From contig CAIQNQ010000103.1 of assembly GCA_903873165.1 (NCBI GenBank), forward strand, positions 8,387 through 72,386: DNA of 64,000 nucleotides, written 5' to 3'. Origin of the DNA: an uncultured Methylococcaceae bacterium (GTDB taxonomy: Bacteria; Pseudomonadota; Gammaproteobacteria; Methylococcales; Methylomonadaceae). Positions 33,601 to 61,232 of the stretch are shown here, in pieces; position 1 is the stretch's first letter, and every line of letters starts with the position of its first letter. The notes below the pieces were generated by a model, which was not told the origin of the DNA, ran no database searches, and saw only the letters and a program-made list of their open reading frames with translations. A program made the position numbers and the translations under genes.

Positions 33601-33875
33601 GGGTGATTAAAGAACCACTAAGCGAGTATCAAATTCCGGGCTTAACGCCTGAGTTGTTTGCGGCTGAAACGGCCTTAAAGCTAGAAGATATTATTTCTGA
33701 ACATAAAATTAGGGATTGGATAAAAAATCAGGATGTTAATAATGTGATTTTAAATGAGCTGGAAGACTATCTTTTTAGTTTGAAAGGTCGTTACGAACTG
33801 GCAATGGACTTAGATCTTATTGAGCGTATCACTCATCAAGTGCTTGCTATAGCAAAACGTAGAGATGGTAAATGA
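30678..33875 (+). CDS. hsdR: Type I restriction enzyme R subunit (endonuclease/helicase)
   Basis: Nuclease motif PDIVLFVNGIPLVVIECK, Walker A HTTGSGKSLTMV and DEAH-type motif VDESHRSQ. The ATG at 30678 (MSINDYLEDL) is preferred over the TTG at 30654. Confidence 0.93.
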   Translation: MSINDYLEDLSSLLPALTVLEKLGFSYLTPADQLALRGGRTSKCVQESILTQQLQKINSITFKGQVTAFTDSNIQKAVQALVGIPFDSLMNTSEQVYDLLTLGKSLEQTIDGYTKSFSLHYIDWKHPENNVFHVCDEFILERRNSKQTRRPDIVLFVNGIPLVVIECKRPDLKDAIEQGISQHLRNQRGDEIPELFTYAQILLSLSQNKALYATTGTPAKFWALWKEEDKDAQENYLHDLINTPVSLEFKNRLFAERDVQQRQAMETLWQSGQRTPSPQDKALHSLLRPERLLELIYQFIVFDNKEKKICRYQQYFAVAATLNRVNQRKGDAPRPGGVIWHTTGSGKSLTMVMLAKALVLAPAIQNPKIVLVTDRIDLDDQIYKTFHACGKPVVQAKTGEHLLELIAHNKASIITTIIDKFESASRKRKISDASSNIFVLVDESHRSQYGVSHAKMQNVFPNACYIGFTGTPLLKKEKTTAAKFGGFIHKYTMNQAVADGAVTPLLYEGRMSELQGDQAQIDRWFERITKDLSNEQKADLKKKFRREEELSKSEQRLSEIAYDIGQHFKSNYRGTGKKGQFAVTSKATALRYKKYFDEFGDVSVEVIISPLDTREGNTSVDEDTLEDIQVFWKSMMAKYGNDEKYQESIINAFKYSDDPEILIVVDKLLTGFDAPRNTVLYLDKRLKEHNILQAIARVNRLFEGKDFGLIIDYRGIFGELNEAIDTYSALENEGFDPEDIEGTLTDITEEIKLLPQRHTNVWEVFKEVSNQKDLEAMQLHLEPEDRRQRFYDCLAAFTKTLQLALANAKFQDETPPKKIAVYKDDLKYFLNLRQAIKQRFGESVDYSSYEQQIRNMVNKYIGADAVKQLIAPVNVFAIDEFEKEIASIEGDAAKADAIASRIKKTITEKMEEDPALYKRLSEMIDEAIAEHRAKRLSDIEYLERIRKTLTELRGKSSSDLPEILSYHDEAKAFYGVIKEPLSEYQIPGLTPELFAAETALKLEDIISEHKIRDWIKNQDVNNVILNELEDYLFSLKGRYELAMDLDLIERITHQVLAIAKRRDGK

Positions 33876-34591
33876 GTGAGGTTTTATTAAATGAGAGAAA
33901 ACAATCGGTCTTGTTCGGTCAGGCTGAAATTACTTATGTCGTTAATTGGAGTGATCGTAAGACCCTGGCAATTCATGTGTATCCAGATGGGGAAGTTGTT
34001 GTTGATGCACCGATAGCAGTGAGTCAGATTGCCATTGCCCAAAAAGTTAAAAAACGAGCCGCATGGATTTTTAAACAACAAATGCAATTTGCCGCCTATC
34101 CGCCCGTCATGCCAGAAAGACGCTATGTATCTGGCGAATCTTATCGCTACTTGGGGCGGCAATATCGGTTGTTGGTAAAGCAAGGCAGCGGCGAGCACGT
34201 CAAACTTATTAAAGGTCGAATTGTGGTTGAGACGGCTGATCCTGAAAATGCAAATAAAGTTAAAGCCCTGCTGCTCTATTGGTCAAGGTCAAGAGCACAA
34301 ATTATCTTTTCTGAGCGTTACCATATTTGTCTGAAGTTGGTTGCCAAATTGGGTATAGAGCACTATCAGGGTTTTCAACTCCGATCAATGCCTAAACGTT
34401 GGGGTAGTTGTACCGGTCAAGGCAATATCATGTTAAACCCTGAACTGATTGCCGCGCCTAAAGAGTGTATCGATTATGTGATTACACATGAGTTTTGCCA
34501 TTTAAAAATACGCAATCACAGTCCGGTATTTTATAAATTGTTAGCTAAGGTGATGCCTGATTGGGAAATTAGGCGTAAACGCTTAAATTAA
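33872..34591 (+). CDS. DUF45/YgjP-like HExxH metal-dependent hydrolase
   Basis: 239 aa with a C-terminal HEFCHL zinc motif. It overlaps the hsdR stop by 4 nt. DUF45 genes commonly follow hsdR. Confidence 0.8.
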   Translation: MSEVLLNERKQSVLFGQAEITYVVNWSDRKTLAIHVYPDGEVVVDAPIAVSQIAIAQKVKKRAAWIFKQQMQFAAYPPVMPERRYVSGESYRYLGRQYRLLVKQGSGEHVKLIKGRIVVETADPENANKVKALLLYWSRSRAQIIFSERYHICLKLVAKLGIEHYQGFQLRSMPKRWGSCTGQGNIMLNPELIAAPKECIDYVITHEFCHLKIRNHSPVFYKLLAKVMPDWEIRRKRLN

Positions 34592-46200: not shown

Positions 46201-46400
46201 GCTAATAACAATAGTGAAATAAAGACCTCTTAAGAGGATTTGTTAAAACACTGATTCCTTAGGGGCCAGAGCATCAATCAAGGGTTTCTCAGCGGGGAGT
46301 CGCTTTTTTTGATAAAGATTCCCTGGGTTCTTACTTGAAAATTTTGCACAAACTACGCGACTTTTACTGCTTTAATTGCCCCTAATTTATTCTACTTCCG

Positions 46401-46577: not shown

Positions 46578-46603
46578 AAAAGTGTGTCATATGACACAGT
46601 TTT
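46578..46603. promoter_or_regulatory. palindromic regulator-binding site S1 (AAAAG TGTGTCAT ATGACACA GTTTT)
   Basis: The core at 46583-46598 is a perfect 16-bp palindrome. It is one of six related copies in the window. Confidence 0.7.
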
Positions 46604-46609
46604 TTTAAC

Positions 46610-46635
46610 AAAAGTGTGTCATATGACACACTTTT
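46610..46635. promoter_or_regulatory. palindromic regulator-binding site S2 (perfect 26-bp palindrome AAAAGTGTGTCAT ATGACACACTTTT)
   Basis: Read directly from the sequence. The centre-to-centre distance from S1 is 32 bp. Confidence 0.7.
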
Positions 46636-46674
46636 ATTAAATTTATTTTATGTCTATTTAATTTAATATATTAA

Positions 46675-46687
46675 TATCAATTTCTTG
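46675..46687 (+). promoter_or_regulatory. IHF-consensus-like site (TATCAATTTCTTG)
   Basis: Matches WATCAANNNNTTR and lies between the palindrome pair and the -24/-12 element. The motif carries little information in AT-rich DNA. Confidence 0.3.
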
Positions 46688-46694
46688 TGGGTAT

Positions 46695-46710
46695 TGGCGC
46701 TATTTTTGCA
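46695..46710 (+). promoter_or_regulatory. sigma54-type promoter (TGGCGC-TATTT-TTGCA)
   Basis: GG at 46696-97 and GC at 46708-09 have the canonical 12-nt offset. The match to TGGCAC-N5-TTGCW is near-consensus. It lies about 50 nt upstream of the ATG at 46760. Confidence 0.6.
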
Positions 46711-46759: not shown

Positions 46760-47509
46760 ATGCAAAAAAAGATTAGTTTATTAAAGCTAGGCTTAAATGT
46801 TATAGGGATACTTACAATAATATCTTCAGTTAACGCAACAGAGTTGGCTAAGCGTAAAGATGCGAATAATTTTTCTCAAGTAGCACTGCAGATAGCCCAA
46901 ACTCAGCACTTAAGATTGCATTATCCAAGTCATTTGAGCAATAAGTCGGTTAATAATAAATGCCCAGAAGATACCATTGATAAAGTTGTTACTTGCTTAC
47001 TAGGCGGTGCATTTATAGATATGGTTATTAAGAGTAAGTTTGATGGTAAACCGGAAGAGGTTTGGATAGTCGATAGTCAAAATACGCATAACAGCGTTGC
47101 AAAAAATCAACTAGTGAATGTTGATGAACATAATGTCGCAAATGATTCTGCTGACTTATTAGCATTAGCACAATCTGAAGACGCTTTAGAAAGATCACAA
47201 GCTATTGGTAATATGGCAGTCTCAGAAATTAGTGACCCCATTTTAGCTAAAAAGATTCTATCAGATGCTTTAGAAGATAAAGATCCAGACATTCGGGCTA
47301 AAGCGGTTAATAGTGTAACTAAAGTGGACAATGAAAATGCTAGGTCTGTATTACTTCGTATGCTAACAGATAAAGAAGTTAGTGTTAGGCTAGCTTCTGT
47401 TGTTGCTGCCTATAATGATGAAGAAGTATTACATATGGCAGAAGGAGATAGTGATGAGCAGGTTCGTATGTTGGCTGAAATTAGTTTAAATAAGTTAAAA
47501 AGCCAATAG
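46760..47509 (+). CDS. secreted HEAT-repeat protein (copy 1)
   Basis: Signal peptide, then a C-terminal half with HEAT/PBS-lyase-like repeats (ALEDKDPDIRAKAVNSV, LTDKEVSVRLASV, DSDEQVRMLAEISL). Confidence 0.7.
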   Translation: MQKKISLLKLGLNVIGILTIISSVNATELAKRKDANNFSQVALQIAQTQHLRLHYPSHLSNKSVNNKCPEDTIDKVVTCLLGGAFIDMVIKSKFDGKPEEVWIVDSQNTHNSVAKNQLVNVDEHNVANDSADLLALAQSEDALERSQAIGNMAVSEISDPILAKKILSDALEDKDPDIRAKAVNSVTKVDNENARSVLLRMLTDKEVSVRLASVVAAYNDEEVLHMAEGDSDEQVRMLAEISLNKLKSQ

Positions 47510-47682
47510 TTTTTGAATCTAATATGACGGATTTAAACGGATGGTAGATTAATAAATGGGAATTTTATTAAGGTATTTTTCCAAAATCAAGAATACTTAA
47601 TATTTTGAGTACAAAATGATTAAGCATACCGTTGAAAAGGCATTGGTCTTTTTAATTTTAGTAATAAGTGTGGAGTTTAGAA

Positions 47683-48384
47683 ATGCAAAAAATTAAATTA
47701 GTAAAGGCAATGTCTTTGGCATTATTGAGTTTAACTACAGTGGATATAGCTTCTGCTCATGATTTGTTGGGTGGATCATTGGCTGCCGCGCAAAACTCGG
47801 TAGATGTTTTTACTACTAGTTGTTTTAGTTGGAATGGTGCGGTGCCCAATGCAGCAACGGGAATTACTTATGGCCCATTACCCGCAGGTGAAGTTGTAAC
47901 ACCAGCGAGGGGGTTTAAAGCGGCTATTAGTTTGACTGCTGGATCAACAGTGACGGCTACAATTGGTTATACCTCAGTAGGCAATATCAATGGTAATGCT
48001 GTAGGTAATAATGTATTACCAGCATCACCAGCACCTAAAGCACTCGTGGTTACTGATACTACTTTAGGTTCTGCATGGAATAAAACTAGCACGATTCTTC
48101 CTGAGTTTAATGCGTTGGGCGTGTCACCTAAAGGATTTGGTCCTGCCGGCTTTTTAGATATTACAGGTGTAGCACCTACAAAAACAAACAACGGGAATGG
48201 TGAGTACGTTATTGTGATCTCTCATGCTTCTGCGGTGGCAACTAAATATGATTTTCTAGGTCATTGTCAAACTGGCACTAGCGGATCTCTTACTGGTATT
48301 CATACAGGTCAAGGTGCAAATTTTGTAAAAGCAGGAAATCAAGTTGCGCCAACTTTTGATTATGATCAACTTATTGATCAATAG
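47683..48384 (+). CDS. secreted protein of unknown family, predicted to mature with N-terminal His (copy 1)
   Basis: The ATG at 47683 has a GGAG SD. The signal peptide MQKIKLVKAMSLALLSLTTVDIASA is followed by HDLL. It shares the conserved islands TSCFSWN, ISHAS, GHC, GIHTG and a terminal LIDQ with the 57258-57971 paralog. Confidence 0.65.
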   Translation: MQKIKLVKAMSLALLSLTTVDIASAHDLLGGSLAAAQNSVDVFTTSCFSWNGAVPNAATGITYGPLPAGEVVTPARGFKAAISLTAGSTVTATIGYTSVGNINGNAVGNNVLPASPAPKALVVTDTTLGSAWNKTSTILPEFNALGVSPKGFGPAGFLDITGVAPTKTNNGNGEYVIVISHASAVATKYDFLGHCQTGTSGSLTGIHTGQGANFVKAGNQVAPTFDYDQLIDQ

Positions 48385-48527
48385 GTTAAGTAAAGAAGTA
48401 AAATAATATTTTAACTCGATTGAAAGATACAACAAAATATTTAAACGCCCTTTAAAGGGCGTTTAATGTTTAATCTACGGTAATGAATTTAGATGTGTCT
48501 AGATAGATTAAGGTTTTATAAATAATC

Positions 48528-49280
48528 ATGAAAGAATTAAATTGCTTGGTATTAATCTTAATAATTAATATCAGTTCTCTAGTGCATGCAGACAACTTTC
48601 AATTGAAAAGTAATGAACAAAAGTCTAGCTATGCATTAGGTGTGGATTATATGAATGGTCTATATCAAGACAATCTAGCCTTGGATAATAGGGCTTTTTT
48701 GCAAGGCATAAAAGATGTGCAAGCGGGCTTGGGTTCTCGTCTTAACCCCGAAGAACAAAGACGAGCATTAAATTTTTTTATTGTAAAACGCCTTAAACAA
48801 AGACAGTTGCAAAGCGACGCTACTTTGGCTCAAGGTAAAACTTATTTGCTTGAAAATAAAAAGCATTCGGGTGTTAAAGAACAACCGAGTGGTCTTCAGT
48901 ATAAGATATTAAAAATGCCTAATAGTCAACAACAAGTCACTAGCTCAGATGGCGTTGCTATACGTTATCGACTATTTGATATCAAAGGTAAACAGTTAAT
49001 GGCATCACCTGAAGGTAATAGCCAAAAATTAGTGATAAACGCAATTTTTCCTGGTTTACAAGAAGCGTTATTGTTAATGAAAGTAGGTGAAAAAATTGAA
49101 GCAGTGATACCTCCTGAACTGGCTTTTGGGGTTAATGGTAGTCCAGATGGCTTAATTAAGCCTAATCAAACTCTAGTCTATGAGTTGGAGTTGGTAAGTG
49201 TTATTTCTGCGGAACAGGCAAAAGTTGAAATGGAAAAACCCACATTAGTGGGTGGCAAGCCAAATACTTTTGATCAGTAA
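48528..49280 (+). CDS. FKBP-type peptidyl-prolyl cis-trans isomerase (FkpA/Mip-like), periplasmic (copy 1)
   Basis: Signal peptide, an N-terminal dimerisation-type region (SYALGVDYMNGL) and a C-terminal FKBP domain (LVYELELVSV). Confidence 0.85.
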   Translation: MKELNCLVLILIINISSLVHADNFQLKSNEQKSSYALGVDYMNGLYQDNLALDNRAFLQGIKDVQAGLGSRLNPEEQRRALNFFIVKRLKQRQLQSDATLAQGKTYLLENKKHSGVKEQPSGLQYKILKMPNSQQQVTSSDGVAIRYRLFDIKGKQLMASPEGNSQKLVINAIFPGLQEALLLMKVGEKIEAVIPPELAFGVNGSPDGLIKPNQTLVYELELVSVISAEQAKVEMEKPTLVGGKPNTFDQ

Positions 49281-49324
49281 TCTATAATGATAAAGTGTTA
49301 TTATTTTTTAAAAAGCAACAAGAT

Positions 49325-49543
49325 ATGAAAGTTAAAATACTCATCATTCTATTATTCATTGGTTTTTTTCTTACAGGTTGCGCTGAAGTAAAACCTTGGC
49401 AGCGGGGTAATTTAGCTAAGTCCATCATGGCTAATGACCCATCTCCTTTACAATCTTCTTTTAGACAGCATAATTATTCCAGCCGAGAAGCGGCAGGTGC
49501 TACTAGTTCTGGAGCAACTGGTGGTGGTTGTGGCTGCAATTAA
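49325..49543 (+). CDS. DUF4266 family lipoprotein (copy 1)
   Basis: MKVKILIILLFIGFFLTGC lipobox, VKPWQRGNLAK, HNYSSREAA and a terminal GGGCGCN, which is the characteristic DUF4266 pattern. Confidence 0.8.
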   Translation: MKVKILIILLFIGFFLTGCAEVKPWQRGNLAKSIMANDPSPLQSSFRQHNYSSREAAGATSSGATGGGCGCN

Positions 49544-52343
49544 GTCAAAATCTAAATATGTCAAAAGTGCTACTTTACAAGCTTTATGCCTATCAGCATT
49601 GACATTGCCAGGCCTGTCCATTGCTGATAATGCTGCAGGTACTGATGCCAGTATGCATGGTAAATCAAATACCAATTCAGCAAGTGAGACACCTAAACAA
49701 AGTCTTAAGCAATCAGATGCTTTTGATGAAATTGATTACCAATATACTATTTATCAAGAGGGTAAGCGTGATACTTATGATACAGCGCCTTACACTATTG
49801 ATAATAACGGCATCATGACTTCAACTGGGCCTTATAAATACCAAACAAATTTACAACCTATCACTGTGGATAGTGAGCATGCCTCCAGTCGTTTTCGGTT
49901 TGGTGATAGAACACGCTTTGGGTTTAATTATGTACAGGATGTTTGGTCAGGTGCTACGCCTTGGTTTACTACGGCGGCGGGCAATTTTATGATTAAAGCA
50001 AATCCTCAATCTTTAGTGGGAGCTACTTATTGGGCTAATGGCGCGGGTGGTGGGCAGTTATTTGATGCAAAGAATAAGCCATTAACCTTGGCCGCTTTTG
50101 ATACGAATACGAGTACTATTCTCGCAACCAGTCCTTCTCGTATTCAACATGTATTAGGTTATGCCTCACCTGAAATGCGTAATCAGGCGGATTTCAAGTT
50201 AGGATATGACTTTGATCATGCTGCATTGGATATTGGTGGTGGATTATCTGTTGAACGTGATTATCTATCGCAATTTGGAAATTTGGCAGGGCGCATGGAC
50301 TTTAATCAAAAACGTACAACCTTAAATTTTGGGTTGAGTTATACCAATAGTGCGACACACGCTACGTCCACCACAAATTCTTCTAGTGGAACAGTATTAG
50401 ATCCCAGTGTTAATGTCAGTCAACACCAAGCTATGTCGATGTTACCTGGTGATGTTCCTGTTTATGAGCAAATTATTAAAGGTACGCGAGAGGATGGAAC
50501 TATTTCTTTAGCACTTAGCCAAGTGTTAACTAAAAACTCAGTGCTTACTAGTGGTGTTGGTTATACACGTAGTAGTGGTTATATGAGTAATCCTTATAAA
50601 GCAGTCATGGTTTATAATATGGATCCTAATTGGCGATCGGATGGCGGCTCTGGAGCCGTGCTGCCTGATACGGCTTTTCCGGGAGTGCAAATGGCAACGA
50701 GTGGTGGCCCAGTTGCGGAACAGCGGCCGCATTTACGAAATCAGTTAAACTGGGATATCTCTTATCGGCACTATATTGAACCTTTAAATGCTGCCGGCAA
50801 AGTTGGGTACAACTTTTTTCATGATGATTGGGGTATTAACGCACACAGTTTCGATGCTGAATGGCGACAAGCCTTAGGTGATAGTTGGACACTTACGCCG
50901 CATACCCGATATTATTCGCAATCATCGGCTAGTTTTTATACCCCCTACCTTTTATATACTAATGGGGATGTGAGTCCACAAGATCCTGGTTATTTAACAC
51001 CTCTTGCAAGTCAGCATTTTTCTTCTGACCAACGCTTATCATCTTATGGTGCCATTAGTGGAGGGATAACTTTGGGTAAGCAATTAGCGCAAGGTTTAAA
51101 CCTTGAGTTAGGTTACGAATATTATGTCCATAAAGGCGCACTGGCAATAAGTAGTGGCACAGGAGATTACGCTGATTATCATTATTATGCAGCAAGTGCC
51201 ACTATGCGAGTTAATCTCGATCAACTGTCGTTAAGAGGCGGCGCTTATGATAATTACGGACTCTCGGATTGGTTAGGTAATCTGTTTGGTGGAAACGATG
51301 TTGAATCTATTAGCGCTAACTCAAGTCATCAACATAATCATGGTCTAGCTCCTGCGGGGGTTATGTTCTCTCACATGCTTTCTCATGCAGGTGAAACTAT
51401 GGTGGGTTATCGTTATATGCGCGATACGCAGAGTGGTAATTATTTACAGGGCGCTCAAGCGTTAAGTTCGACTCAGCTTACTAATTCTCAGGCTTGTATG
51501 CCATTGGGTCAATGTACTATGCTTTCTAATAGCATGGACATGAATATGCACATGGTTGATTTGATGTATGCTCCCACGGATTGGCTAAATTTGATGTTGA
51601 TGCCGCAGTTTATGTCAATGTCGATGGAAATGAATATGCCAGTTGCTATGTCCATGACTGCAATGGGTGGCGGAATGAATATGCCGGCTTTACGTGATTT
51701 TCAAGGCAGTGGTGGATTTGGTGATACTGGGGCGTATGCTTTATTCAAGCTATGGGATGGTGATGGACAACATTTACATCTAACTCAAGGTATCAGTGCG
51801 CCGACGGGTGCAACGAATATTCGTCAGAGTTCTCCGGGTGGTCCAGAATATTATTATTCTTATGGCATGCAACTAGGTAGTGGTACTTGGGATTATAAGC
51901 CTAGTTTGACCTATACGGGAATTTTGAATGATTGGTTCTGGGGTGGGCAGGTGAGTGGTACCCATAGATTGGAAAATTTAAATAATCAAGGTTATAGGCA
52001 GGGTGATATTTTCCAGACCACGGCATGGGGTGGCTATAAATTGACGCCTTGGCTTAGCTCTACCATACGTGCGGTTTATACTGCACAAAGCAAAATGGTT
52101 GGCACTCATACAAATGTGAATACAGTTGCTGGAGTACCTATGTGGATGCCTGAAGACAATCCAAGTAATTATGGTGGCTTCTTTGTTGATGTCGGCTTCG
52201 GTGCGACAGTGAGTATGCCTTATGGCAAACTGGCTGGTCATTCTTTAGGGTTTGAATGGTTGCAACCTGTTAGCACTAATTTCCAAGGCTATCAGTTAGA
52301 TAGAGCAGGGGCTTTGTCTGCGACATGGAATTATAAGTTTTAG
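49530..52343 (+). CDS. DUF3570 domain protein fused to a C-terminal His/Met-rich beta-barrel-like domain (copy 1)
   Basis: DUF3570-like motifs are present (VQDVWSGATP, GYMSNPYKAV, EQRPHLRNQ, FHDDWGINAHSF, RYYSQSSASFY, SSDQRLSSYG). A roughly 390-aa extension follows, with a Met-rich tract and a terminal aromatic residue (..WNYKF). The GTG start at 49530 (VAAIKSK..) is chosen by analogy with the paralog start MAVIKTP. This gives the same 14-nt overlap with the DUF4266 gene. Confidence 0.7.
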   Translation: MAAIKSKSKYVKSATLQALCLSALTLPGLSIADNAAGTDASMHGKSNTNSASETPKQSLKQSDAFDEIDYQYTIYQEGKRDTYDTAPYTIDNNGIMTSTGPYKYQTNLQPITVDSEHASSRFRFGDRTRFGFNYVQDVWSGATPWFTTAAGNFMIKANPQSLVGATYWANGAGGGQLFDAKNKPLTLAAFDTNTSTILATSPSRIQHVLGYASPEMRNQADFKLGYDFDHAALDIGGGLSVERDYLSQFGNLAGRMDFNQKRTTLNFGLSYTNSATHATSTTNSSSGTVLDPSVNVSQHQAMSMLPGDVPVYEQIIKGTREDGTISLALSQVLTKNSVLTSGVGYTRSSGYMSNPYKAVMVYNMDPNWRSDGGSGAVLPDTAFPGVQMATSGGPVAEQRPHLRNQLNWDISYRHYIEPLNAAGKVGYNFFHDDWGINAHSFDAEWRQALGDSWTLTPHTRYYSQSSASFYTPYLLYTNGDVSPQDPGYLTPLASQHFSSDQRLSSYGAISGGITLGKQLAQGLNLELGYEYYVHKGALAISSGTGDYADYHYYAASATMRVNLDQLSLRGGAYDNYGLSDWLGNLFGGNDVESISANSSHQHNHGLAPAGVMFSHMLSHAGETMVGYRYMRDTQSGNYLQGAQALSSTQLTNSQACMPLGQCTMLSNSMDMNMHMVDLMYAPTDWLNLMLMPQFMSMSMEMNMPVAMSMTAMGGGMNMPALRDFQGSGGFGDTGAYALFKLWDGDGQHLHLTQGISAPTGATNIRQSSPGGPEYYYSYGMQLGSGTWDYKPSLTYTGILNDWFWGGQVSGTHRLENLNNQGYRQGDIFQTTAWGGYKLTPWLSSTIRAVYTAQSKMVGTHTNVNTVAGVPMWMPEDNPSNYGGFFVDVGFGATVSMPYGKLAGHSLGFEWLQPVSTNFQGYQLDRAGALSATWNYKF

Positions 52344-52388
52344 CCTTCGCCTATAATAGAACAAGGCTTAATTGCCTCACTAGACACT

Positions 52389-53294
52389 ATGAAAGCCAAG
52401 AAGCTTAAGCAATTTAACTATCACTTTAATGCTATGGGCACTCAGTGTGAAATCCAGCTTTTTAGTGAGCACCCCGGCAGAGCCAATCGACTCGGTAAAC
52501 GCATTATTGCGGATGTCGAGCGCTTGGAGGCAAAATATTCGCGTTATCGGCCAGAAAGCCAGTTAAGCCAAATTAATAATGTGGCCTTATTGGGCGGTAG
52601 TATTGCGGTGGATGATGAGACAGCCGTTTTGCTTAATTATGCTGAAACTTGTTATCAACAAAGTGATGGCTTATTTGATATTACCTCTGGCGTTTTAAGG
52701 GGCGCATGGCGATTTCATGCTCAGCGCTTACCGACTCAAGCAGATATAGATCCCTTATTAGAAAAGGTGGGTTGGCATAAGCTAAATTGGCACATGCCTA
52801 GGCTAGAGTTTACTCAGCCCGGCATGGAATTGGATTTAGGAGGGGTGGTAAAAGAATATGCTGTCGATAGAGCTGCCACTTTATGTAGAGAAGTCGGTAT
52901 CAAAAGTGGATTGATAAATTTAGGGGGTGATATCAGGTTAGTAGGCCCCAGAGGTGACGGTGAGCCTTGGATAGTTGGGATTGAGCATCCTCGGAAACCG
53001 AGTTCTGTGTTGATTAATTTGTCCGTAACGCGTGGCGCATTAGCAAGCAGTGGGGATTATCAACGCTGTATTGTTATAGATGGCATTCGCTATGCGCATA
53101 TTCTTAACCCCAAAACGGGTTGGCCAGTTAAGCATTTAGCGGCTGTTAGTGTTATGAGTGATTTTTGCGTCGTAGCCGGTAGCGCCTCAACCATTGCCAT
53201 GCTTAAAGAGGAGCAAGGCCCTGAGTGGTTGAGGCAATTAGGTTTACCGCACCTGTGGGTCGATATTAATGGTAAACAGGGCGGTGATTTATAA
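52389..53294 (+). CDS. apbE: FAD:protein FMN transferase (ApbE family)
   Basis: FNAMGTQCEI, GLFDITSG, LDLGGVVKEYAVDRA, INLGGDI, SSGDYQRC...HILNPKTGWP and AGSASTIAM motifs. No N-terminal signal peptide is visible. Confidence 0.88.
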   Translation: MKAKKLKQFNYHFNAMGTQCEIQLFSEHPGRANRLGKRIIADVERLEAKYSRYRPESQLSQINNVALLGGSIAVDDETAVLLNYAETCYQQSDGLFDITSGVLRGAWRFHAQRLPTQADIDPLLEKVGWHKLNWHMPRLEFTQPGMELDLGGVVKEYAVDRAATLCREVGIKSGLINLGGDIRLVGPRGDGEPWIVGIEHPRKPSSVLINLSVTRGALASSGDYQRCIVIDGIRYAHILNPKTGWPVKHLAAVSVMSDFCVVAGSASTIAMLKEEQGPEWLRQLGLPHLWVDINGKQGGDL

Positions 53295-53334
53295 AGCAGT
53301 TTTGAAAATTACGAGGTATTTATTAGCTAAACTA

Positions 53335-54093
53335 TTAGGGCTGTTTCCAGCTTGACGTGGGTTTTAGATCGCTAGTTTGTGAGGCGATTTTTTCCACAAT
53401 ACTCATCAGTTCAACCTCATAAATCAGGACTTCATTCGGCGCTAAATGGCCGGGGGCACCCGTTTCACCATAGGCTAGATTGCTTGGTACAAACAATTGC
53501 CATTTACTGCCTTCGGTCATTAACAACATAGCCTCCTTCCAGCCAGGCACCAAGCTGGCAATCTGCACCTCGGGTACTTTTGCAGAGGTTAGCGTATTGG
53601 TTAATTCTTTGCCATCCAGTTGCGTGATTTTAAAGCGCACCTGGGCTGATTCTTTTAGTGTCGGTTGACGCGATGATTTGCCGGGAATTAGCACCTTGTA
53701 CTGTAAGCCACTGGCGGTCGTAATAACGCCTGGTTTTTGCTTGTTCTCTGCTAAAAATGCCTCACCTTTAGCCAGATTTAAGGCACCCATTTTTTCATTG
53801 TACTTTACGTGTTGTACAAAAACCCAGTCCTGGCCTTTTAGCAATTCGTTCGGATTAAGGCGTAACGGATGCTTGTTTAGTACATCATTCATACCTAACA
53901 CAAACAAACTCTGATCCAGTGGAATCTCGCTTTTTTGCAAGTTTTGCAAATAATTAACCCCTTGCGCATAGCTGGATTTTTGCTGATCTGATTGCAGGAT
54001 TGGTTCGGTGATAACCGATTTGGTAGGTGGCGTCGCTGCGCAACCTGTTAAAAAACTGAAACACAGGGCTGTGAAATAAGTTTTAGCTTTCAT
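53335..54093 (-). CDS. FKBP-type peptidyl-prolyl isomerase, lipoprotein (copy 2)
   Basis: Lipobox FLTGC, SYAQGVNYLQNL and a C-terminal FKBP domain (LIYEVELMSI). Confidence 0.85.
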   Translation of the reverse strand: MKAKTYFTALCFSFLTGCAATPPTKSVITEPILQSDQQKSSYAQGVNYLQNLQKSEIPLDQSLFVLGMNDVLNKHPLRLNPNELLKGQDWVFVQHVKYNEKMGALNLAKGEAFLAENKQKPGVITTASGLQYKVLIPGKSSRQPTLKESAQVRFKITQLDGKELTNTLTSAKVPEVQIASLVPGWKEAMLLMTEGSKWQLFVPSNLAYGETGAPGHLAPNEVLIYEVELMSIVEKIASQTSDLKPTSSWKQP

Positions 54094-54139
54094 GGATCCT
54101 CTTAAAAATAAAAATTTAAATAAAAATTAACAACCGTTA

Positions 54140-56884
54140 TCAAAACCCAACGCCCCACGTTGCAGTTAATGCGCCACTGCGTTCTAATTGATAGCCGTTA
54201 TAGTCGGTGTGTACCGGTTGCAGCCATTCAAATTTGAGGGTATTGCCGGCAAAAGTACCTGTGGGTACTGTCACATTAATGCCCAAACCGACATCCACAA
54301 ATTGACCGCCGTAGTTACTGGTAAATTGGCTAGGCATTCGATAGTTGCCGAATTGGTTATAGGGGATTGTACTGCCATCAGTCATGACTACGGGCTTGAG
54401 TACCCCATGAATACTGTCCTGCCAGGTATAGATGCCACGTACGTTAGCAGACAACCAGTTATTCCATTGATAACCACCCCATATGCTGCTCTGGAAGATA
54501 TCACCTAAGGCATAACCGGATTCATTGTGTTTATCTAAGCGTTTGGTACCGGTAGCCTGAGCGCCCCAGATAATGGCTTCCATTGCGCCACTGTAGGTCA
54601 AGCTGGGTTTAAGATCCCAGGTGCCACTGCCCAGTTGCATGCTGTAATCGAGTGGAATGATTGCAGCGTTAGAAGTGTTCTTTTTCTGCATCAGTGAGAC
54701 ATTGCCGGTGGGCGCGGTGCCGCCTAGGCTTAGGGTGAGCTGATGACCGTGTTGTTCAAATAGTTTGATCAGCGCATACAAACCGGTATCGCCAATGCCG
54801 CCGGATTGTTGATTCATTACGGGCATATCGAGGCCCATGCCAGTAGTGCTGCGTTTCATCTCTGACTGGTTCATTTTCATATCCATATCCGTCCATTGCG
54901 GCATTAGCATTAGTGTTACCCGGTCAGTGGCGGCCACCATCAGCTCCAGCATGTGCATATTCATAGTCATAGTGCTGGGTAACATCATGCAGGTTTGATC
55001 AGCGCAACCCTGTGCAATGGCCGTATCGTTACTGGCTGTCGACGTGCCAGACAGCATAGAGCCAGATTGTTCGTTACGCATGTACCGGTACCCCGCCATC
55101 ATATCGCCGGCATTATCCAGCGCATGATCAAACATGATACCGGCTGGCGTAATGGCATGGCTGGCATGGTGATGAGCTGTGCTGCTGCTATCGTTGCTAC
55201 CTCCATTAAAACGCAAAGCACCCAGATTGATTTTAAGTGCGGCATTGGCCGTCCAATAATCAAAATTATTGAACGCCTGTTCACTACCGCTACCACCACC
55301 CAACTTTAAGGCACTCTGATGCGTGTAATATTCAAACCCAGCTTGCAGACTGATGCCTTTGGCGAATTGTTTTGCTACGATGACTCCACCACTCAGAGCA
55401 CCAAAACCTGCCAAACGCTGGTCGCTGGAATAATAATCCGGTAGGGCTTTGGAATAGATGACATTACCTGAAGCATCATACCCTGACATGGTTGTCGTAA
55501 AATACGGGGCATAAAAATCCGCTGCCGATTGCGAGTAATAACGTACTTTGGGGGTGATTGTCCAGCCGGCACCTACCGGTTGCGCCCAATCGGCCTCAAA
55601 CGTATGAGAATTAATGCCCCAATCATCATGTGCCCCCGTGTAACGAGTATGCAGCGCAGCGTTGAGCGGCTCAATATAATAATGGTAGCCCAGATTGCCG
55701 TTGACCTGATTGCGCTCATGCGGGCGAGCCTCCCATTGACCTGCTCCGCTGTACATTAATGGTTGGCTTGGATCCTGACCGGGGTTGGCGTGAAACACAT
55801 ACACCGCCTTGTAAGGATTACTTAAGTAGCCAGTGCTATGGGTAAAACTCGTTCCCACATCCATTACGGCGTTTTGGGTCAGAATCTGGGTTAGGCCCAA
55901 ATTACCAGCGACATCTTGACGAGTACCGGTCAGGGTAGTTGTTTGTGCACCAATCATCCCTCTGTTAGGAAGGCTTGTTGTTACCTGATGATAAGTACCT
56001 TCGGTCTGAGGACTGTAGAAGTTACGCGTTGTAGTATTGCCATTGACGGTGCTGCCGTTAAAGGAATAGGGGCCACCAGCCATGTAAGTCACAGCAAATG
56101 GATCCAGGGTGGCGTGGGTATAACTGTTGGTATAGCTTACGCCGGCATTGAGGCTGGTGCGTTTTTGGTTAAAATCCAGGCGCAAACCCAGATTACCGAA
56201 GCGCGAGTCATAATCATTTTCTACCGAATAGCCACCGCCGCCGTTAACGCTGGCGTTATCCCAATCATAATCCAGTTTAAAGTCGCTTTGTTTGCGGGTT
56301 TCTGGCGAGGCGCCGACCAATACATTAGTCACCTGGTTGACTATAGCACCGGGTGTAAACGTACTACTCCCCGTATTAGGATCATAATGATAGTTTTGGC
56401 TATGAATATTATTCTGTTTGTCTATATAGAAAGGATTAGAATTTGTGTTACGTAACAGAGGTGAAGCACCAGTAATGGCATTAGTGACAGGGTTCGATAC
56501 CGGACTCGCTGCATTCGACACGACCGGCGCAGAGGCAATCGGTGTGGCTCCGGCCCAGGTATCCTGAGTGTAATTAAACGCAAACTTGACCCGGTCAGTC
56601 AGGTGAACACGAGAACTACCATGTAAGCCATCTACTTCGATCGGGTTTAAATAATTGGGTGTTTTACTGGACGTGAATGTGCCAGTAGGATTTACATTGG
56701 TATAAATATTGCGGTAACCTTCCTGGTAATGGCTGTACTGAAAGTCCACTTCATCTTCATCGGCTGCGTAAGCTGGGGCTTGCATTAGGCCGGGCAGGAT
56801 TAAGGCCGCTGCGGTTAATGCTTGTAAATTAGACTTGCCACGAGAGGGTGCTTTGGGTTTTTCGGGGGTTTTAATTACAGCCAC
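54140..56884 (-). CDS. DUF3570 domain protein fused to a C-terminal His/Met-rich beta-barrel-like domain (copy 2)
   Basis: 914 aa and collinear with copy 1, sharing FNYTQDTWAGATP, GYLSNPYKAV, EARPHERNQ, AHDDWGINSHTF, RYYSQSAADFY and SSDQRLAGFG. The tracts HHHASHAITPAGIMF and MMLPSTMTMNMHMLELM...MLMPQWTDMDMKM follow. It ends ..WGVGF. Confidence 0.75.
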   Translation of the reverse strand: MAVIKTPEKPKAPSRGKSNLQALTAAALILPGLMQAPAYAADEDEVDFQYSHYQEGYRNIYTNVNPTGTFTSSKTPNYLNPIEVDGLHGSSRVHLTDRVKFAFNYTQDTWAGATPIASAPVVSNAASPVSNPVTNAITGASPLLRNTNSNPFYIDKQNNIHSQNYHYDPNTGSSTFTPGAIVNQVTNVLVGASPETRKQSDFKLDYDWDNASVNGGGGYSVENDYDSRFGNLGLRLDFNQKRTSLNAGVSYTNSYTHATLDPFAVTYMAGGPYSFNGSTVNGNTTTRNFYSPQTEGTYHQVTTSLPNRGMIGAQTTTLTGTRQDVAGNLGLTQILTQNAVMDVGTSFTHSTGYLSNPYKAVYVFHANPGQDPSQPLMYSGAGQWEARPHERNQVNGNLGYHYYIEPLNAALHTRYTGAHDDWGINSHTFEADWAQPVGAGWTITPKVRYYSQSAADFYAPYFTTTMSGYDASGNVIYSKALPDYYSSDQRLAGFGALSGGVIVAKQFAKGISLQAGFEYYTHQSALKLGGGSGSEQAFNNFDYWTANAALKINLGALRFNGGSNDSSSTAHHHASHAITPAGIMFDHALDNAGDMMAGYRYMRNEQSGSMLSGTSTASNDTAIAQGCADQTCMMLPSTMTMNMHMLELMVAATDRVTLMLMPQWTDMDMKMNQSEMKRSTTGMGLDMPVMNQQSGGIGDTGLYALIKLFEQHGHQLTLSLGGTAPTGNVSLMQKKNTSNAAIIPLDYSMQLGSGTWDLKPSLTYSGAMEAIIWGAQATGTKRLDKHNESGYALGDIFQSSIWGGYQWNNWLSANVRGIYTWQDSIHGVLKPVVMTDGSTIPYNQFGNYRMPSQFTSNYGGQFVDVGLGINVTVPTGTFAGNTLKFEWLQPVHTDYNGYQLERSGALTATWGVGF

Positions 56885-57092
56885 AACCGCCTCCTTGTGA
56901 GTTATTTGCCGCTGAAGCTGCCTCGCGGCTACCGTAGTTATGCTGACTCAACCCGCTTTGCAAGGGATAAGGATCCAGTGCCATGTGTGGTTTGGCCAGG
57001 TTGCCGCGCTCCCAGGGCTGAACGCTGGTGCAGCCAGTGAGTACTAGCAGTACGTAAACCAGTAATAGGTGATGTAAAACTATTTTGTCCAT
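56871..57092 (-). CDS. DUF4266 family lipoprotein (copy 2)
   Basis: MDKIVLHHLLLVYVLLVLTGC lipobox, VQPWERGNLAK, HNYGSREAA and a terminal GGGCGCN. It overlaps the DUF3570 start by 14 nt. Confidence 0.8.
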   Translation of the reverse strand: MDKIVLHHLLLVYVLLVLTGCTSVQPWERGNLAKPHMALDPYPLQSGLSQHNYGSREAASAANNSQGGGCGCN

Positions 57093-57257
57093 GTATTCCT
57101 TTGAGTAAAGCGTTGCAATCTGCGATAACAATTAAGCCAAAAACTTTTTTAGAAAAAGCCGGTAACTCGTAGGAGCTACCGACTTTTTGGTAATGCAATA
57201 ATACCTACCGTTGTTTAACTTAAGCAGGCCTGTGTTATCGTTGTGATGACTATGGAT

Positions 57258-57971
57258 TTATTGGTCAATGAATTGATTCCAATCAGCTGCTGTAGTACCG
57301 GAACCATTGGGTACATCAATAAAGCTGTTGGGGTTAGCGCCAGTATTCACCCCAGTACCTGTGTGAATACCCACAGAAGAATCGGGCGCTGGGAGTGCGC
57401 CTACCGCCACGTTTTCGCAGTGAAAAGTGGCTAGATAATTAGTCGCCACACCCGGAGTATGAGAAACGGCGACGGTGTAAGTGCCGTTAGCATCTGCGCC
57501 TAAATTATCTTTTACCTGTGCCCAGGCGCCAGCATTGGTTCCGTCGCCCCATAAATTAGGAATAACAGTGCCATCGACCAAAATCCCACCGCTGTTAACC
57601 GGAACCCCTGTTGTTGAGGATACGCCAGCTAAAGGGGTATTTCCGAATGGAGAGCCGACGGATACTTTTACTTTAGAGGTGGCGCCACTAAGCGCAGTCG
57701 GAGTGCAAGTTGCATCGAGTGTTGAACAGCGATGATACGCCCTGGCCACAAAGCGTTTAGCAGCGGCTGTCGATTCGCCGCCGGCTGCCGCTGCACCTGC
57801 TGCGTTCCACGTAAAGCAACTGGTGTGATACACGTCAATCTCAGAGGCTGTGCCAGCATCCGCCGCCGAGAGTGTTCCAGGTGCTGTATGCGCCATACTT
57901 ACATTAGACAGGCTTATTGCACATAGCATAGCAGTTGATAATAATGTTAGTTTTAGAGTATTATTTTTCAT
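57258..57971 (-). CDS. secreted protein of unknown family, predicted to mature with N-terminal His (copy 2)
   Basis: The signal peptide ...LSNVSMA is followed by HTAPG. It shares the conserved islands TSCFTWN, VSHTP, FHC, GIHTG and a terminal FIDQ with copy 1. Confidence 0.65.
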   Translation of the reverse strand: MKNNTLKLTLLSTAMLCAISLSNVSMAHTAPGTLSAADAGTASEIDVYHTSCFTWNAAGAAAAGGESTAAAKRFVARAYHRCSTLDATCTPTALSGATSKVKVSVGSPFGNTPLAGVSSTTGVPVNSGGILVDGTVIPNLWGDGTNAGAWAQVKDNLGADANGTYTVAVSHTPGVATNYLATFHCENVAVGALPAPDSSVGIHTGTGVNTGANPNSFIDVPNGSGTTAADWNQFIDQ

Positions 57972-57992
57972 AGGAATCTCAATTTAATGGAT

Positions 57993-58031
57993 TAAAAAAA
58001 TGCCGACGCGCTATTTCGAGTTGCGCTCGGC
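57993..58031 (-). terminator. intrinsic-terminator-like hairpin between HEAT2 and the His1-protein gene (minus strand)
   Basis: The minus strand reads GCCGAGCGC..loop..GCGCGTCGGC followed by CATTTTTTT. The T-tail ends about 22 nt before the ATG at 57971. Confidence 0.5.
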
Positions 58032-58118
58032 CGGTACACTTATCACCATTGATAGGTGTACTTGCTTTTGCTGTCGGCGTACGGACTAGGTACGTCGACT
58101 ACAAAATCTTTGCTAGGT

Positions 58119-59009
58119 TTATTGTTGTCCATTACGTTCGCGGTAACGAAGCAACATACCTAATTTATCAGCCGCGTAATTGCTGACACTTTTATCACTA
58201 TCATTCTGGGCCTGTTCCAGCAGATCCTGATTATTGGCTGCACTTTCAATTGCCGCCATGCGCACGCTACTGTCGGTATCCTGTAAACCACGACTAATAA
58301 TTTCCTTAGCATTGTCTTTGTCTAATGCCGCCATTGATGACAAGGCCTGACTGCGGATGGTGGGGTTTTTATCCCCCATCGCCTCGGTAAGTGCTGCACG
58401 CACATTTGGATCATTAATATTGGCGCCTGCCGTTAAATAACTGAGGGCATTTTTACGTTCTTCTGCGGTTTTGGCTTCTTTAAGACCGGTTAATAGGGCA
58501 TCGGAGTATTCTTTATTGGGTGGTTCCGGTTTTCGTTGGGAATTATCGATACCAGATTCAGTTTTTATGGATACGGGTGTGGATTCAATCGTTAAGGTCT
58601 GACAACTACCAACACTGGAACCTAGTAGCCAAAATTCTGCGGGTTTGCCGGGTTCCGGTTTGTTTGCTACCAAGCCAATTTGCTTGGCCAGCAAGCAATC
58701 CATTAATTGCCAAACGTTTGTGCCAGCGCAAGTCGCCGTTACCGGCGCTTCTGGTAATGCGGAGTAATGAAAAATTGCACCAGTTTTACTGGCAATTTCA
58801 TTAAGGATTTCCCCCAGGGGCATTTGCCTTACTTCTAAACTGATCGGGCTGTCTGCTTGTGTCGATAACACAAGTTGAATGCTGGGTTGTATCGTCGGCG
58901 TTACCACGGGTTTATCTTTTACCGTTTCAGCAAGCAAGGGATTGCTAGACAAAAAGCTCCCAACCATTGAAACGACCAAGCTTATATATTGCGTATATTT
59001 AATGATCAA
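58119..59009 (-). CDS. secreted HEAT-repeat protein (copy 2)
   Basis: TTG start with a signal-like N-terminus. The C-terminal half carries HEAT-like repeats (MGDKNPTIRSQALSSM, LQDTDSSVRMAAIES, DSDKSVSNYAADKL). Confidence 0.65.
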   Translation of the reverse strand: MIIKYTQYISLVVSMVGSFLSSNPLLAETVKDKPVVTPTIQPSIQLVLSTQADSPISLEVRQMPLGEILNEIASKTGAIFHYSALPEAPVTATCAGTNVWQLMDCLLAKQIGLVANKPEPGKPAEFWLLGSSVGSCQTLTIESTPVSIKTESGIDNSQRKPEPPNKEYSDALLTGLKEAKTAEERKNALSYLTAGANINDPNVRAALTEAMGDKNPTIRSQALSSMAALDKDNAKEIISRGLQDTDSSVRMAAIESAANNQDLLEQAQNDSDKSVSNYAADKLGMLLRYRERNGQQ

Positions 59010-59103
59010 GCGTCTATAACCTCTAGTTTAGAAATAGCAGGGCTTAAATCACATCCCCACGTAGCCCGTGGGGATGAGAAAAAGAGTTAAAAGGTATAGA
59101 GAG

Positions 59104-59934
59104 TTAAAAAGCCCGCACAGCCCGGACAGGAGCATAGGCATTTTTAGGAGCGTATCCAGCGTCACCGTAGTAGAAGTCGTAAGTCCAGGCCCCCAAGTCG
59201 TCGCTTTCTGAAGAACTCCAGAAGGAAGTACTGTCTGATTTAGTAATACCTCCTACCCCATGATCCGCTAAATTCTTATACATTAGAGTAAGTTCGTTAA
59301 TTGATGGTAAATACCAATCACTTTTATTGGCTGTTAAATAAAGATCAGCTTGCTTGGCTGCACCCGTTGAGCAAGCTCCAAGCATGGCTGTGGTGTTCGC
59401 CTTACCAGCACCTAAAGCTCTAGCAGACCAAGCCGCTACCTGTGGAATTGAGGTGTTGGTAATATTACACCACTGGGTAACTGCTATATCAGTCGGAGCG
59501 GCTTCCAGATAATTAAAGCCTGGATATTCATCGTTATAATCAACAAAGAATATCCAGCCCCCACCGGGACCTACCTCGCCAACTTTACAAGCCACTTTGC
59601 CACTGGCACCACAAGTCATAGAATAGGCAAATGAACTTCCAGAGCCTGAAGAACCTGCAGGCCCCATAGCCCCTGTAGCCCCCATAGCCCCTGTGTCACC
59701 TTTTGCGCCAGTGGCCCCCGTCATTCCTATCGGTCCCTGAACTCCTGGCTCACCTTTAGCTCCTTTTGGGCCTCTTGGTCCAATAGGTCCTCTTGGACCT
59801 CTAGTTCCAGCGGACGATGCCGTTGCTAGCCCTTGAACGCCCACAGCGTCTGTTGCATCAGCAACACTCCATAATGATGACAATATCAGTGCTGACATAA
59901 TCATTGGTATTTTTAATAACGATAATATTTTCAT
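59104..59934 (-). CDS. secreted collagen-like triple-helix repeat protein with DUF1566 (Lcl-type) C-terminal domain
   Basis: Signal peptide, then about 19 uninterrupted G-X-Y triplets ([40 protein letters not shown]...). The C-terminal domain contains [14 protein letters not shown], which is typical of DUF1566. Confidence 0.75.
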
Positions 59935-60031: not shown

Positions 60032-60047
60032 AGCAGGTTACGTGCCA
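60032..60047 (-). promoter_or_regulatory. sigma54-type promoter (minus strand TGGCACG-TAAC-CTGCT)
   Basis: The reverse complement of 60032-60047 has canonical GG/GC spacing and a near-consensus -24 box. It lies about 100 nt upstream of the collagen-like gene start at 59934. Confidence 0.6.
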
Positions 60048-60117: not shown

Positions 60118-60130
60118 TAACCAATTGATA
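60118..60130 (-). promoter_or_regulatory. IHF-consensus-like site (minus strand TATCAATTGGTTA)
   Basis: Matches WATCAANNNNTTR and lies between the palindrome pair and the sigma54 element. The motif carries little information. Confidence 0.25.
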
Positions 60131-60218: not shown

Positions 60219-60234
60219 AGTGTTATATGACGCA
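60219..60234. promoter_or_regulatory. palindromic site A (AGTGTTAT ATGACGCA)
   Basis: Three mismatches to TGTGTCAT ATGACACA. It is flanked by AAAGC and GTTTT. Confidence 0.55.
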
Positions 60235-60248
60235 GTTTTATAGATAAG

Positions 60249-60264
60249 TGTGTCATATAACACA
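60249..60264. promoter_or_regulatory. palindromic site B (TGTGTCAT ATAACACA)
   Basis: One mismatch to the consensus. The centre is 30 bp from site A. Confidence 0.65.
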
Positions 60265-61093: not shown

Positions 61094-61107
61094 AATGTCG
61101 CGATATT

Positions 61108-61218: not shown

Positions 61219-61232
61219 ACTTTTAGCAAAAG

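Follow-up and report, generated by a model that had tools for sequence, protein, structure and literature searches.

Paired palindromes upstream of arm 1

The window analysed here is a 64,000-nucleotide stretch of contig CAIQNQ010000103.1 (assembly GCA_903873165.1, positions 8,387 to 72,386 of the forward strand) from an uncultured Methylococcaceae bacterium. It carries two gene clusters, designated arm 1 and arm 2. This work deals with a pair of 16-bp palindromes upstream of arm 1, the promoter that follows them, and the protein that may bind them. An earlier note on this DNA had described two perfect copies of the palindrome core, a perfect 26-bp palindrome around the second copy, a site like that of integration host factor (IHF), and a TGGCGC-N5-TTGCA element of the sigma-54 type. 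Each of them was found exactly where it had been placed, as follows.

46578–46603, no strand assigned: predicted arm 1 distal upstream activator site, with A- and T-tract flanks around the core TGTGTCATATGACACA at 46583–46598, centre at about −130.5, 42.6 bits
46610–46635, no strand assigned: predicted proximal upstream activator site of arm 1, perfect 26-bp palindrome AAAAGTGTGTCATATGACACACTTTT, core at 46615–46630, centre at about −98.5, 42.2 bits
46675–46687, plus strand: IHF-consensus site TATCAATTTCTTG between the activator sites and the promoter, at about −46 to −34
46695–46710, plus strand: predicted sigma-54 −24/−12 element TGGCGC-N5-TTGCA, predicted start at about 46721

The core TGTGTCATATGACACA is identical at both places, with 32 bp from centre to centre, and the flanks of the distal copy equal those of the proximal copy except for one G (AAAAG...G-TTTT). 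The transcription start was estimated by setting the C of the GC doublet (46709) as −12. On this numbering the palindromes, placed near −131 and −99 in the earlier note, are centred at −130.5 and −98.5; they are dyad-symmetric, in phase, and within the range of about 80–200 bp upstream that is typical of activator sites. The predicted IHF site TATCAATTTCTTG fits the consensus WATCAANNNNTTR exactly. The GG and GC doublets of the promoter element are exactly 10 bp apart, and the element stands less than about 100 nt from a gene, in keeping with a sigma-54 promoter: the ATG of a HEAT-repeat protein gene follows at 46760, 49 nt past the element (about 50 nt in the earlier estimate).

Recurrence in the window and in related genomes

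A search of the window for the 16-mer with up to three mismatches yielded six matches against 0.20 expected, and none of 100 shuffles reached six. The matches form three pairs, at 46583/46615, 60219/60249, and 61203/61233. A weight matrix built from 118 related sites scored 8 bits or more at these six places only. The features associated with the second and third pairs are listed below.

60219–60264, no strand assigned: second palindrome pair, made up of AGTGTTATATGACGCA and TGTGTCATATAACACA with their centres 30 bp apart, upstream of arm 2, at about −205 and −235
60118–60130, minus strand: IHF-consensus site TATCAATTGGTTA, halfway from the arm 2 palindromes to the promoter of that arm
60032–60047, minus strand: predicted arm 2 sigma-54 −24/−12 element TGGCACGTAACCTGCT, predicted start at about 60021
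61203–61248, no strand assigned: third palindrome pair, made up of TGTGTCATAAGACACA and TGGGTGATATGACGCA with their centres 30 bp apart
61108–61123, plus strand: sigma-54-like element TGGCATAGTTACTGCT(TTATAT), upstream of the third pair, which would sit at about +77 and +107

Both arms thus carry an exact match to WATCAANNNNTTR between the palindromes and the promoter element.

Only five homologues of the window's HEAT protein were found among 5.8 billion proteins. The loci encoding them belong to a Methylococcaceae metagenome-assembled genome and keep the whole HEAT/FKBP/DUF4266/DUF3570/ApbE gene order, with 49% identity of the HEAT protein to that of the window. Upstream of these orthologous clusters (loci L001 and L003) lie TGTGTGATATGACACA-CTAC-TGTGTCATATCACACA, a weaker third site 73 bp further on, and TGGCAT-N5-ATGCW. 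The retention of palindromes and promoter element at this level of protein divergence supports a conserved promoter layout.

One genome per species was then scanned with the exact pattern TGTGTSATATSACACA-N(2-32)-TGTGTSAT. A paired palindrome was found at 49 loci, often several per genome, chiefly in Methyloglobulus, Methylobacter, and other Methylococcales, with a few in Parabeggiatoa/Thiomargarita, Sedimenticola, and Halomonadaceae. A handful of matches in other phyla (tandem repeats of Chitinophagaceae/Bacteroidetes, a single Acidaminobacter site, and a few others) were set aside or not analysed separately. Locus L010, from a Methylococcaceae metagenome-assembled genome with a GC content of 0.38, is 82% identical in nucleotide sequence to positions 63649–63968 of the window and carries the same pairs, which assigns the window to this lineage. 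Besides arm 1, the predicted regulon comprises the other two pairs of the window and, in Methylococcales and some further Gammaproteobacteria, dozens of loci; they share the palindrome of about 26 bp, its phasing, and its distances from the promoter. The earlier note had considered that the palindrome might be a dispersed repeat lying mostly outside promoters; the repeat is indeed dispersed, yet it is found beside sigma-54-like promoters.

In metagenome-assembled genomes of Chitinophagaceae/Bacteroidetes (L011, 6271–6458; L022, 1446–1547), TGTGTGATATCACACA occurs as a 43-bp tandem repeat with no sigma-54-like element nearby and is probably an unrelated repeat that matches the search pattern. 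In a Latescibacterota locus (L047, 4457–4514), three sites 21 bp apart are located 78 bp from a near-perfect TGGCACGGTTCTTGCA element, which precedes an integrase/AAA protein gene and a YdjM-like gene. The pairing of motif and sigma-54 element may thus reach beyond Proteobacteria, possibly on a mobile element.

Geometry of sites, promoters, and IHF sites

The centre-to-centre spacings in 48 clusters took only three ranges of values, 20–22, 30–32, and 73–75 bp, which correspond to two, three, and seven helical turns. An outward-facing TGGCAY-N5-TTGCT element was present at 20–300 bp in 41 of these clusters. The expectation from 2000 random placements in the same loci was 4.4, with a maximum of 12, so the association was about ninefold over chance.

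The distance from the last site to the promoter element was measured at all loci as the first base of TGGC minus the last base of the core. A short class of 64–67 bp included eleven cases and four more from the metagenome set described below; arm 1 belongs here with 65, equal to 64 intervening bases. A long class extended over about 170–191 bp and included arm 2 with 172.

The gaps between palindromes and promoters, 6.9 kb in total, contained 15 matches to the IHF consensus against 1.0 expected, an enrichment of about 15-fold, and 13 of the 15 shared the orientation of the promoter. In short gaps (63–64 nt) the match was at position 45–46 in the window and in L038 and L117, two unrelated loci. 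In long gaps it was mostly found at about position 90–130. Phased spacings, promoter elements, IHF matches, and the layout kept at the orthologous cluster all agree with the enhancer-dependent sigma-54 promoter that the earlier note had proposed for arm 1.

In at least 12 related loci, among them L009 (3396–3448), L024, L027, L033, L038, L043, and L048, the 74-bp spacer between a pair and a third site is filled by a conserved inverted repeat, CTGAAAGCC-N12-GGCTTTCAG. It is absent from the window and could be the site of a second protein.

A candidate activator linked to DsbD_2

As the earlier note had stated, the window does not encode the activator: none of its open reading frames of 300 amino acids (aa) or more has a Sigma54_activat domain, and a GAFTGA-type motif is absent from all six frames. 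Genes of enhancer-binding proteins (EBPs) adjacent to the palindromes, which that note had proposed to look for, were sought in the scan loci by a six-frame GAFTGA search. An EBP gene adjoins the palindromes in L009, L013, L019, L035, and L037. All five products are 318–321 aa long, and all five genes stand beside a gene for a DsbD_2 (PF13386) membrane protein. The same candidate adjoins palindromes in L117, L122, L127, L132, and L135, so that it was found beside the sites in at least 10 loci of several lineages, with GC contents from 0.41 to 0.62. No other regulator family recurs there.

The candidate proteins (313–325 aa) have a Sigma54_activat domain starting at residue 7–12, followed by a lid domain and HTH_8, and lack an N-terminal domain. 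They carry GAFTGA or GSFTGA. The helix-turn-helix (HTH) segment NRSxAAxLLG[LI][ST]RDTLLYR is conserved at an overall identity of 47–55% across the family, and the DsbD_2 partner keeps the motifs HCxGMCG and WGWLPCGLVY. A metagenome scan seeded with the DsbD_2 alignment gave 80 loci, and the activator gene (313–361 aa) followed directly in 67 of the approximately 71 that were long enough.

The DsbD_2/activator operon is closely preceded by a palindrome pair in L117, L122, and L127 and by a single site in L069 and in L086. A divergent sigma-54 element stands 65 bp from the pair in L117 and L122 and 66 bp from it in L132 and L135. In L117 and L122 this element precedes a gene for a TonB-dependent receptor; L132, L135, and L035 have the same divergent layout, with TonB and the DsbD_2/activator pair alongside, which brings the loci with a TonB-dependent receptor at this position to at least five. 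The receptors of L035, L132, and L135 exceed the cut-off of the curated ‘TonB-dependent copper receptor’ model (528–556 bits vs. 472). The adjacent pairs face the activator operon without a sigma-54 element on that side, which fits the expectation for autoregulation.

The best 120 matches in a protein search were all orthologues (72–98% identity) from Methyloglobulus, including M. morosus KoM1, Methylobacter, including M. marinus, and other Methylococcaceae. Methyloglobulus, Methylobacter, and low-GC contigs resembling the window have orthologues of the activator at 65–85% identity, and a search with a high-GC member of the family retrieved Methylococcus, Methyloparacoccus, Methylocaldum, and relatives. 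Adjacency to the palindromes was seen in L009, a close relative whose activator best matches Methyloglobulus (83–85% identity); the other cases of adjacency belong to other lineages.

The candidate reached the cut-off of none of the named NCBIfam models, those for PspF, NtrC, NifA, and ZraR included. Identity with NtrC was rejected (324 bits vs. a cut-off of 559, no receiver domain, and a site consensus TGTGTSATATSACACA that is not of the NtrC type), as was identity with NifA (316 bits vs. 529 for TIGR01817, no GAF domain). PspF was rejected as well, with 264 and 281 bits vs. 444 for TIGR02974, 226 and 251 vs. 529 for NF008622, and DsbD_2 rather than PspA as the neighbour. With its AAA+ domain and HTH and the lack of a regulatory domain at the N-terminus, the protein corresponds in architecture to the PspF family. 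The closest solved structure was that of ZraR, a generic relative only.

Judging from these features, the activator of the palindrome-linked promoters is most likely this sensor-less EBP of about 318 aa, which has AAA+ and Fis-type HTH domains and whose gene would lie elsewhere in the genome. Its DsbD_2 partner plausibly controls it in trans.

Proposed mechanism and alternative explanations

We consider it highly probable that the paired palindromes are tandem sites for a dimeric EBP with a Fis-type HTH at the sigma-54 promoter of a regulon, the best candidate for this EBP being the DsbD_2-linked protein. At arm 1, the two sites at about −131 and −99, separated by 32 bp or three turns, would each take up an activator dimer on the same helical face, and the dimers would nucleate an active AAA+ ring. 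A bend induced by IHF at about −40 would let the ring reach sigma-54 RNA polymerase held in a closed complex on TGGCGC-N5-TTGCA. ATP hydrolysis would then open the promoter, and the genes for the exported HEAT-repeat protein and its neighbour would be transcribed. Read-through would probably reach the FKBP, DUF4266, DUF3570, and ApbE genes. The genes and the hairpin of arm 1 are as follows.

46760–47509, plus strand: exported HEAT-repeat protein gene, the first behind the arm 1 promoter
47668–48384, plus strand: gene for an exported 238-aa protein of unknown family, the second in arm 1
48441–48466, no strand assigned: strong hairpin TTAAACGCCCTTTAAAGGGCGTTTAA between the second and third genes, candidate terminator or attenuator
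48528–49280, plus strand: Mip-like FKBP gene
49295–49543, plus strand: DUF4266 lipoprotein gene, product ending in CGC
49434–52343, plus strand: DUF3570 gene with SGAT and TGAT flavinylation motifs
52389–53294, plus strand: ApbE gene, end of arm 1

The HEAT gene and a gene of the 238-aa type also stand together behind palindromes in L003, L023, L040, and L052.

Five sets of observations weigh against this reading. First, the pattern TGGC-N7-TTGCW is not enriched in the window (46 matches vs. 38 expected), and the promoter call therefore rests on context and conservation. Second, the hairpin at 48441–48466 may split arm 1 into two transcription units by ending the transcript after two genes. 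The earlier claim that an activator at this promoter drives the cluster is thus borne out in part: the promoter may act directly on the first two genes and leave the others to read-through. Third, no palindrome was found within 6–10 kb of the intact DsbD_2/activator pair in Methylobacter marinus, Methyloglobulus morosus, Methyloparacoccus, and a Methylococcus assembly, so that in the window's own order the link between activator and sites rests on co-occurrence. Fourth, the third pair, located between a gene for an HExxH protein (60933–60268, minus strand) and a gene for a 506-aa protein (starting at 61364, plus strand), lies downstream of the sole nearby sigma-54-like element and departs from the common geometry. 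The L010 equivalent of this element (61108–61123) faces away from the pair, and no minus-strand sigma-54 element with the correct GG-N10-GC spacing was found for the HExxH gene between 60934 and 61203. Fifth, the palindrome with its A- and T-tract flanks resembles a bidirectional terminator, with a predicted RNA fold of −13.4 kcal/mol.

The alternative that survives best is that a different EBP, for example one with a receiver or other sensory domain, binds these sigma-54 enhancer sites and that the DsbD_2-linked protein is merely a member of the regulon. The four assemblies in which the DsbD_2/activator pair has no palindrome nearby favour it. Adjacency to a regulator gene, moreover, can signify ‘regulated by’ as well as ‘binds’, and in L040 another EBP gene is located 2.9 kb from the pair. 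We nevertheless regard a different EBP as unlikely. It is a single domain-less family that recurs beside the sites across a wide range of GC contents, the pairs next to its operon are placed as under autoregulation, and its HTH is conserved in step with the DNA motif.

A second alternative, that the palindromes are not protein sites and act as bidirectional Rho-independent terminators or RNA hairpins insulating an upstream argB-like gene from arm 1, accounts for the succession of A-tract, stem-loop, and T-tract. A terminator scan listed both copies. Among the families of Rfam 15, none reached its gathering score, and only generic hairpin families matched below threshold (best 36 bits vs. 62). 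The consensus site is AAAAG-TGTGTSATATSACACA-CTTTT. Its primary sequence is conserved across genera, and in 68 of 124 sites the bases at 6 and 11, its two variable positions, are not complementary to each other. The A at −1 and the T at +18 are each 86% conserved, though the flanks played no part in the selection of sites. Conserved sequence, unpaired positions, and conserved flanks argue for a protein-binding site rather than a hairpin. The sites also form phased pairs or triplets, keep fixed distances from sigma-54 elements that face outward, and lie at promoters and not at gene ends; the upstream gene, moreover, already has a separate terminator-like hairpin at 46283–46304. We therefore rejected this explanation as very improbable.

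The idea that a CRP/FNR-type or other sigma-70-linked dimeric regulator uses the sites as operators, with sigma-54-like elements that are coincidental or served by an activator without a DNA site of its own, draws on TGTG...CACA blocks that are as far from the dyad as in CRP sites and in register with TGTGA-N6-TCACA, and it can hardly be maintained: 94% of the 118 sites have T at position 5 and A at position 12 and none has the A and T of CRP, the sigma-54 elements stand at fixed distances far more often than by chance, and EBP genes adjoin the sites, where no CRP-family gene was noticed in loci that were not screened for that family.

Arm 2 and other features of the window

The genes of arm 2, in the order in which they follow the promoter, are given below.

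59934–59104, minus strand: collagen/Lcl_C protein gene, the first of arm 2
59009–58119, minus strand: HEAT protein gene
57971–57258, minus strand: gene for a 237-aa protein, paralogue of the 238-aa protein of arm 1
56884–54140, minus strand: DUF3570 gene
54093–53335, minus strand: FKBP gene, the last of arm 2

The two arms (46760–59934) are convergent and are partly mirror-image paralogues, sharing the HEAT, 237/238-aa, FKBP, and DUF3570 genes. A palindrome pair, an IHF site, and a sigma-54 element belong to each of them. The DUF4266 and ApbE genes are present in arm 1 only, and the collagen/Lcl_C start in arm 2 only.

Near the third pair, a second and different dyad or repeat, TGTCGCGCGACA-AAA-TGTCGCGA, occupies 61079–61123 and abuts the plus-strand element TGGCATAGTTACTGCT that faces the pair. 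It could be the site of a second activator or a rearranged promoter. On the minus strand at 60958–60978, a terminator-like hairpin AAGCGGTCATTATGACCGCTT followed by T8 is located directly upstream of the ribosome-binding site of the HExxH gene, whose product has 221 aa; the hairpin may act as an attenuator or mark where a short minus-strand transcript ends. In L009, L014, and L024, a three-site cluster and a sigma-54 promoter precede genes whose first members include homologues of the HExxH gene.

The exported 506-aa protein is encoded by the operon after the third pair (61364–63960) and matched no family. Encoded with it are an FMN_bind protein, in which an SGAT flavinylation motif is present at residue 150, and a membrane protein of 167 aa that shares 88% identity with its L010 counterpart. 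From its predicted products the operon looks like another ApbE-dependent extracytosolic system.

Two features are located elsewhere in the window. At 25389–34591, genes of a type I restriction-modification system (HsdM, HsdS, HsdR) with an inserted SMODS nucleotidyltransferase gene (29302–30144) are followed by a YgjP-like metallopeptidase, and the region resembles a small defence island. At 7346–8030 there is a Gp49/HTH_37 (HigB/HigA-like) toxin-antitoxin pair; counterparts with 56% identity lie a few kilobases upstream of the HEAT cluster of L001/L003.

Regulon content and a possible link to copper

The genes behind palindrome-linked sigma-54 elements include clusters encoding HEAT-repeat, unknown-family, FKBP, DUF4266, DUF3570, and ApbE proteins, and 221–244-aa HExxH proteins homologous to that of the window. 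Also present are genes for extracytoplasmic function (ECF) sigma factors, FecR, and STN-type TonB-dependent receptors, further TonB-dependent receptors, MtrC-like multihaem cytochromes, and regulators of the AraC and OmpR types. TonB, a DsrE-like protein, and several exported proteins of unknown family also belong to the set.

According to the consulted passages of Meheust et al. (2021; PMC8238504), DUF3570 is a proven substrate of ApbE flavinylation, and DUF3570/DUF4266/ApbE clusters are extracytosolic redox systems whose function the authors call uncertain; in the searched passages of that paper, nothing was found on the regulation of these genes. Microarrays of Methylococcus capsulatus Bath revealed clusters induced by copper limitation, with multihaem surface cytochromes, a TonB-dependent receptor, and TonB/ExbBD, for which sigma-54 promoters and an IHF site were predicted (Larsen and Karlsen, PMC4831470). 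One such cluster includes MCA0447, a protein with AAA+ and Fis-type HTH domains (PMC4831470). The DsbD_2/activator pair of the Methylococcus assembly and of Methyloparacoccus is located in a different, housekeeping neighbourhood. MCA0447 may therefore be a different protein from the candidate activator, and we take the link to M. capsulatus as a lead and not as a result.

With these data in mind we put forward, tentatively and with more doubt than confidence, that the DsbD_2/activator pair may be a signalling module. The membrane protein would report the periplasmic metal or thiol-redox state, most plausibly copper, to the sensor-less activator, which would command via the 26-bp palindrome a large regulon of copper acquisition and extracytoplasmic redox in gammaproteobacterial methanotrophs. 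The proposal is based on the receptors of L035, L132, and L135, which score as copper receptors, and on the similar genes and predicted sigma-54 promoters of the M. capsulatus copper-limitation clusters. If it were true, TonB-dependent receptors, ECF-sigma/FecR systems, multihaem surface cytochromes, and flavinylated DUF3570 systems would be members of this regulon, and the module would be a missing regulator of the methanotroph copper response. Should the copper link hold, it would bear on copper sensing in methanotrophs; a 2015 study of Methylococcus capsulatus described the underlying mechanisms as not yet fully elucidated (PMC4831470).

An anonymous intergenic palindrome has in this way become a testable regulon, with an operator of about 32 bits, a stereotyped promoter architecture, a candidate activator family, and a list of target operons. 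The candidate family has cultivable hosts, Methylobacter marinus and Methyloglobulus morosus. The predicted targets include DUF3570/DUF4266/ApbE flavoprotein systems and uptake and electron-transfer genes of methane oxidisers.

Comparison with known systems

The enhancer architecture itself is textbook. In the literature, we found none of the four 16-mers and no description of this operator, its regulon, or a DsbD_2-linked family of sigma-54 activators.

At the enteric glnAp2 promoter, NtrC occupies a pair of dyad-symmetric sites near −140 and −108, which are separated by about three turns, and its AAA+ oligomer loops to the sigma-54 promoter. The tandem dyad sites of arm 1, about three helical turns apart upstream of a predicted sigma-54 promoter, resemble this arrangement. 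However, NtrC sites have the form TGCACC-N5-GGTGCA and not TGTGTSATATSACACA, NtrC has a receiver domain and the candidate has none, and the targets here are envelope proteins instead of nitrogen assimilation genes.

PspF of the E. coli pspF-pspA region consists only of AAA+ and HTH domains, is controlled by its partner in trans, and acts in a divergent region with IHF between the sites and the promoter. The candidate activator shares the two-domain architecture, the presumed control in trans, divergent sites, and an intervening IHF site, and the sites by its own gene suggest autoregulation. In contrast to PspA, its partner is a polytopic DsbD_2 membrane protein, and the predicted regulon comprises many operons vs. 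one or two.

The upstream activator sequence TGT-N10-ACA is bound by the GAF-domain protein NifA at nif/fix genes. The arm 1 sites fit this pattern and lie about 100–130 bp upstream with an IHF site between. The fit is merely formal, as the earlier note had already held: TGT-N10-ACA carries little information against 16 to 26 specified positions here, the genes downstream encode HEAT, FKBP, DUF3570, and ApbE proteins with no nif genes among them, and the candidate activator is without a GAF domain.

The copper-limitation clusters of M. capsulatus Bath (PMC4831470) come from the same order, and the predicted regulon likewise includes MtrC-like multihaem cytochromes, TonB-dependent receptors, and TonB; no palindrome was reported for those clusters. 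The arm 1 genes themselves correspond to the DUF3570/DUF4266/ApbE systems as characterised in the consulted passages of PMC8238504, with [ST]GA[ST] motifs in DUF3570, a CXC end in DUF4266, and ApbE. The systems treated in those passages are usually clustered with DsbD (PF02683) and a thioredoxin-like protein, whereas arm 1 has HEAT-repeat and FKBP genes instead and, in a further difference from them, a predicted sigma-54 enhancer at the cluster.

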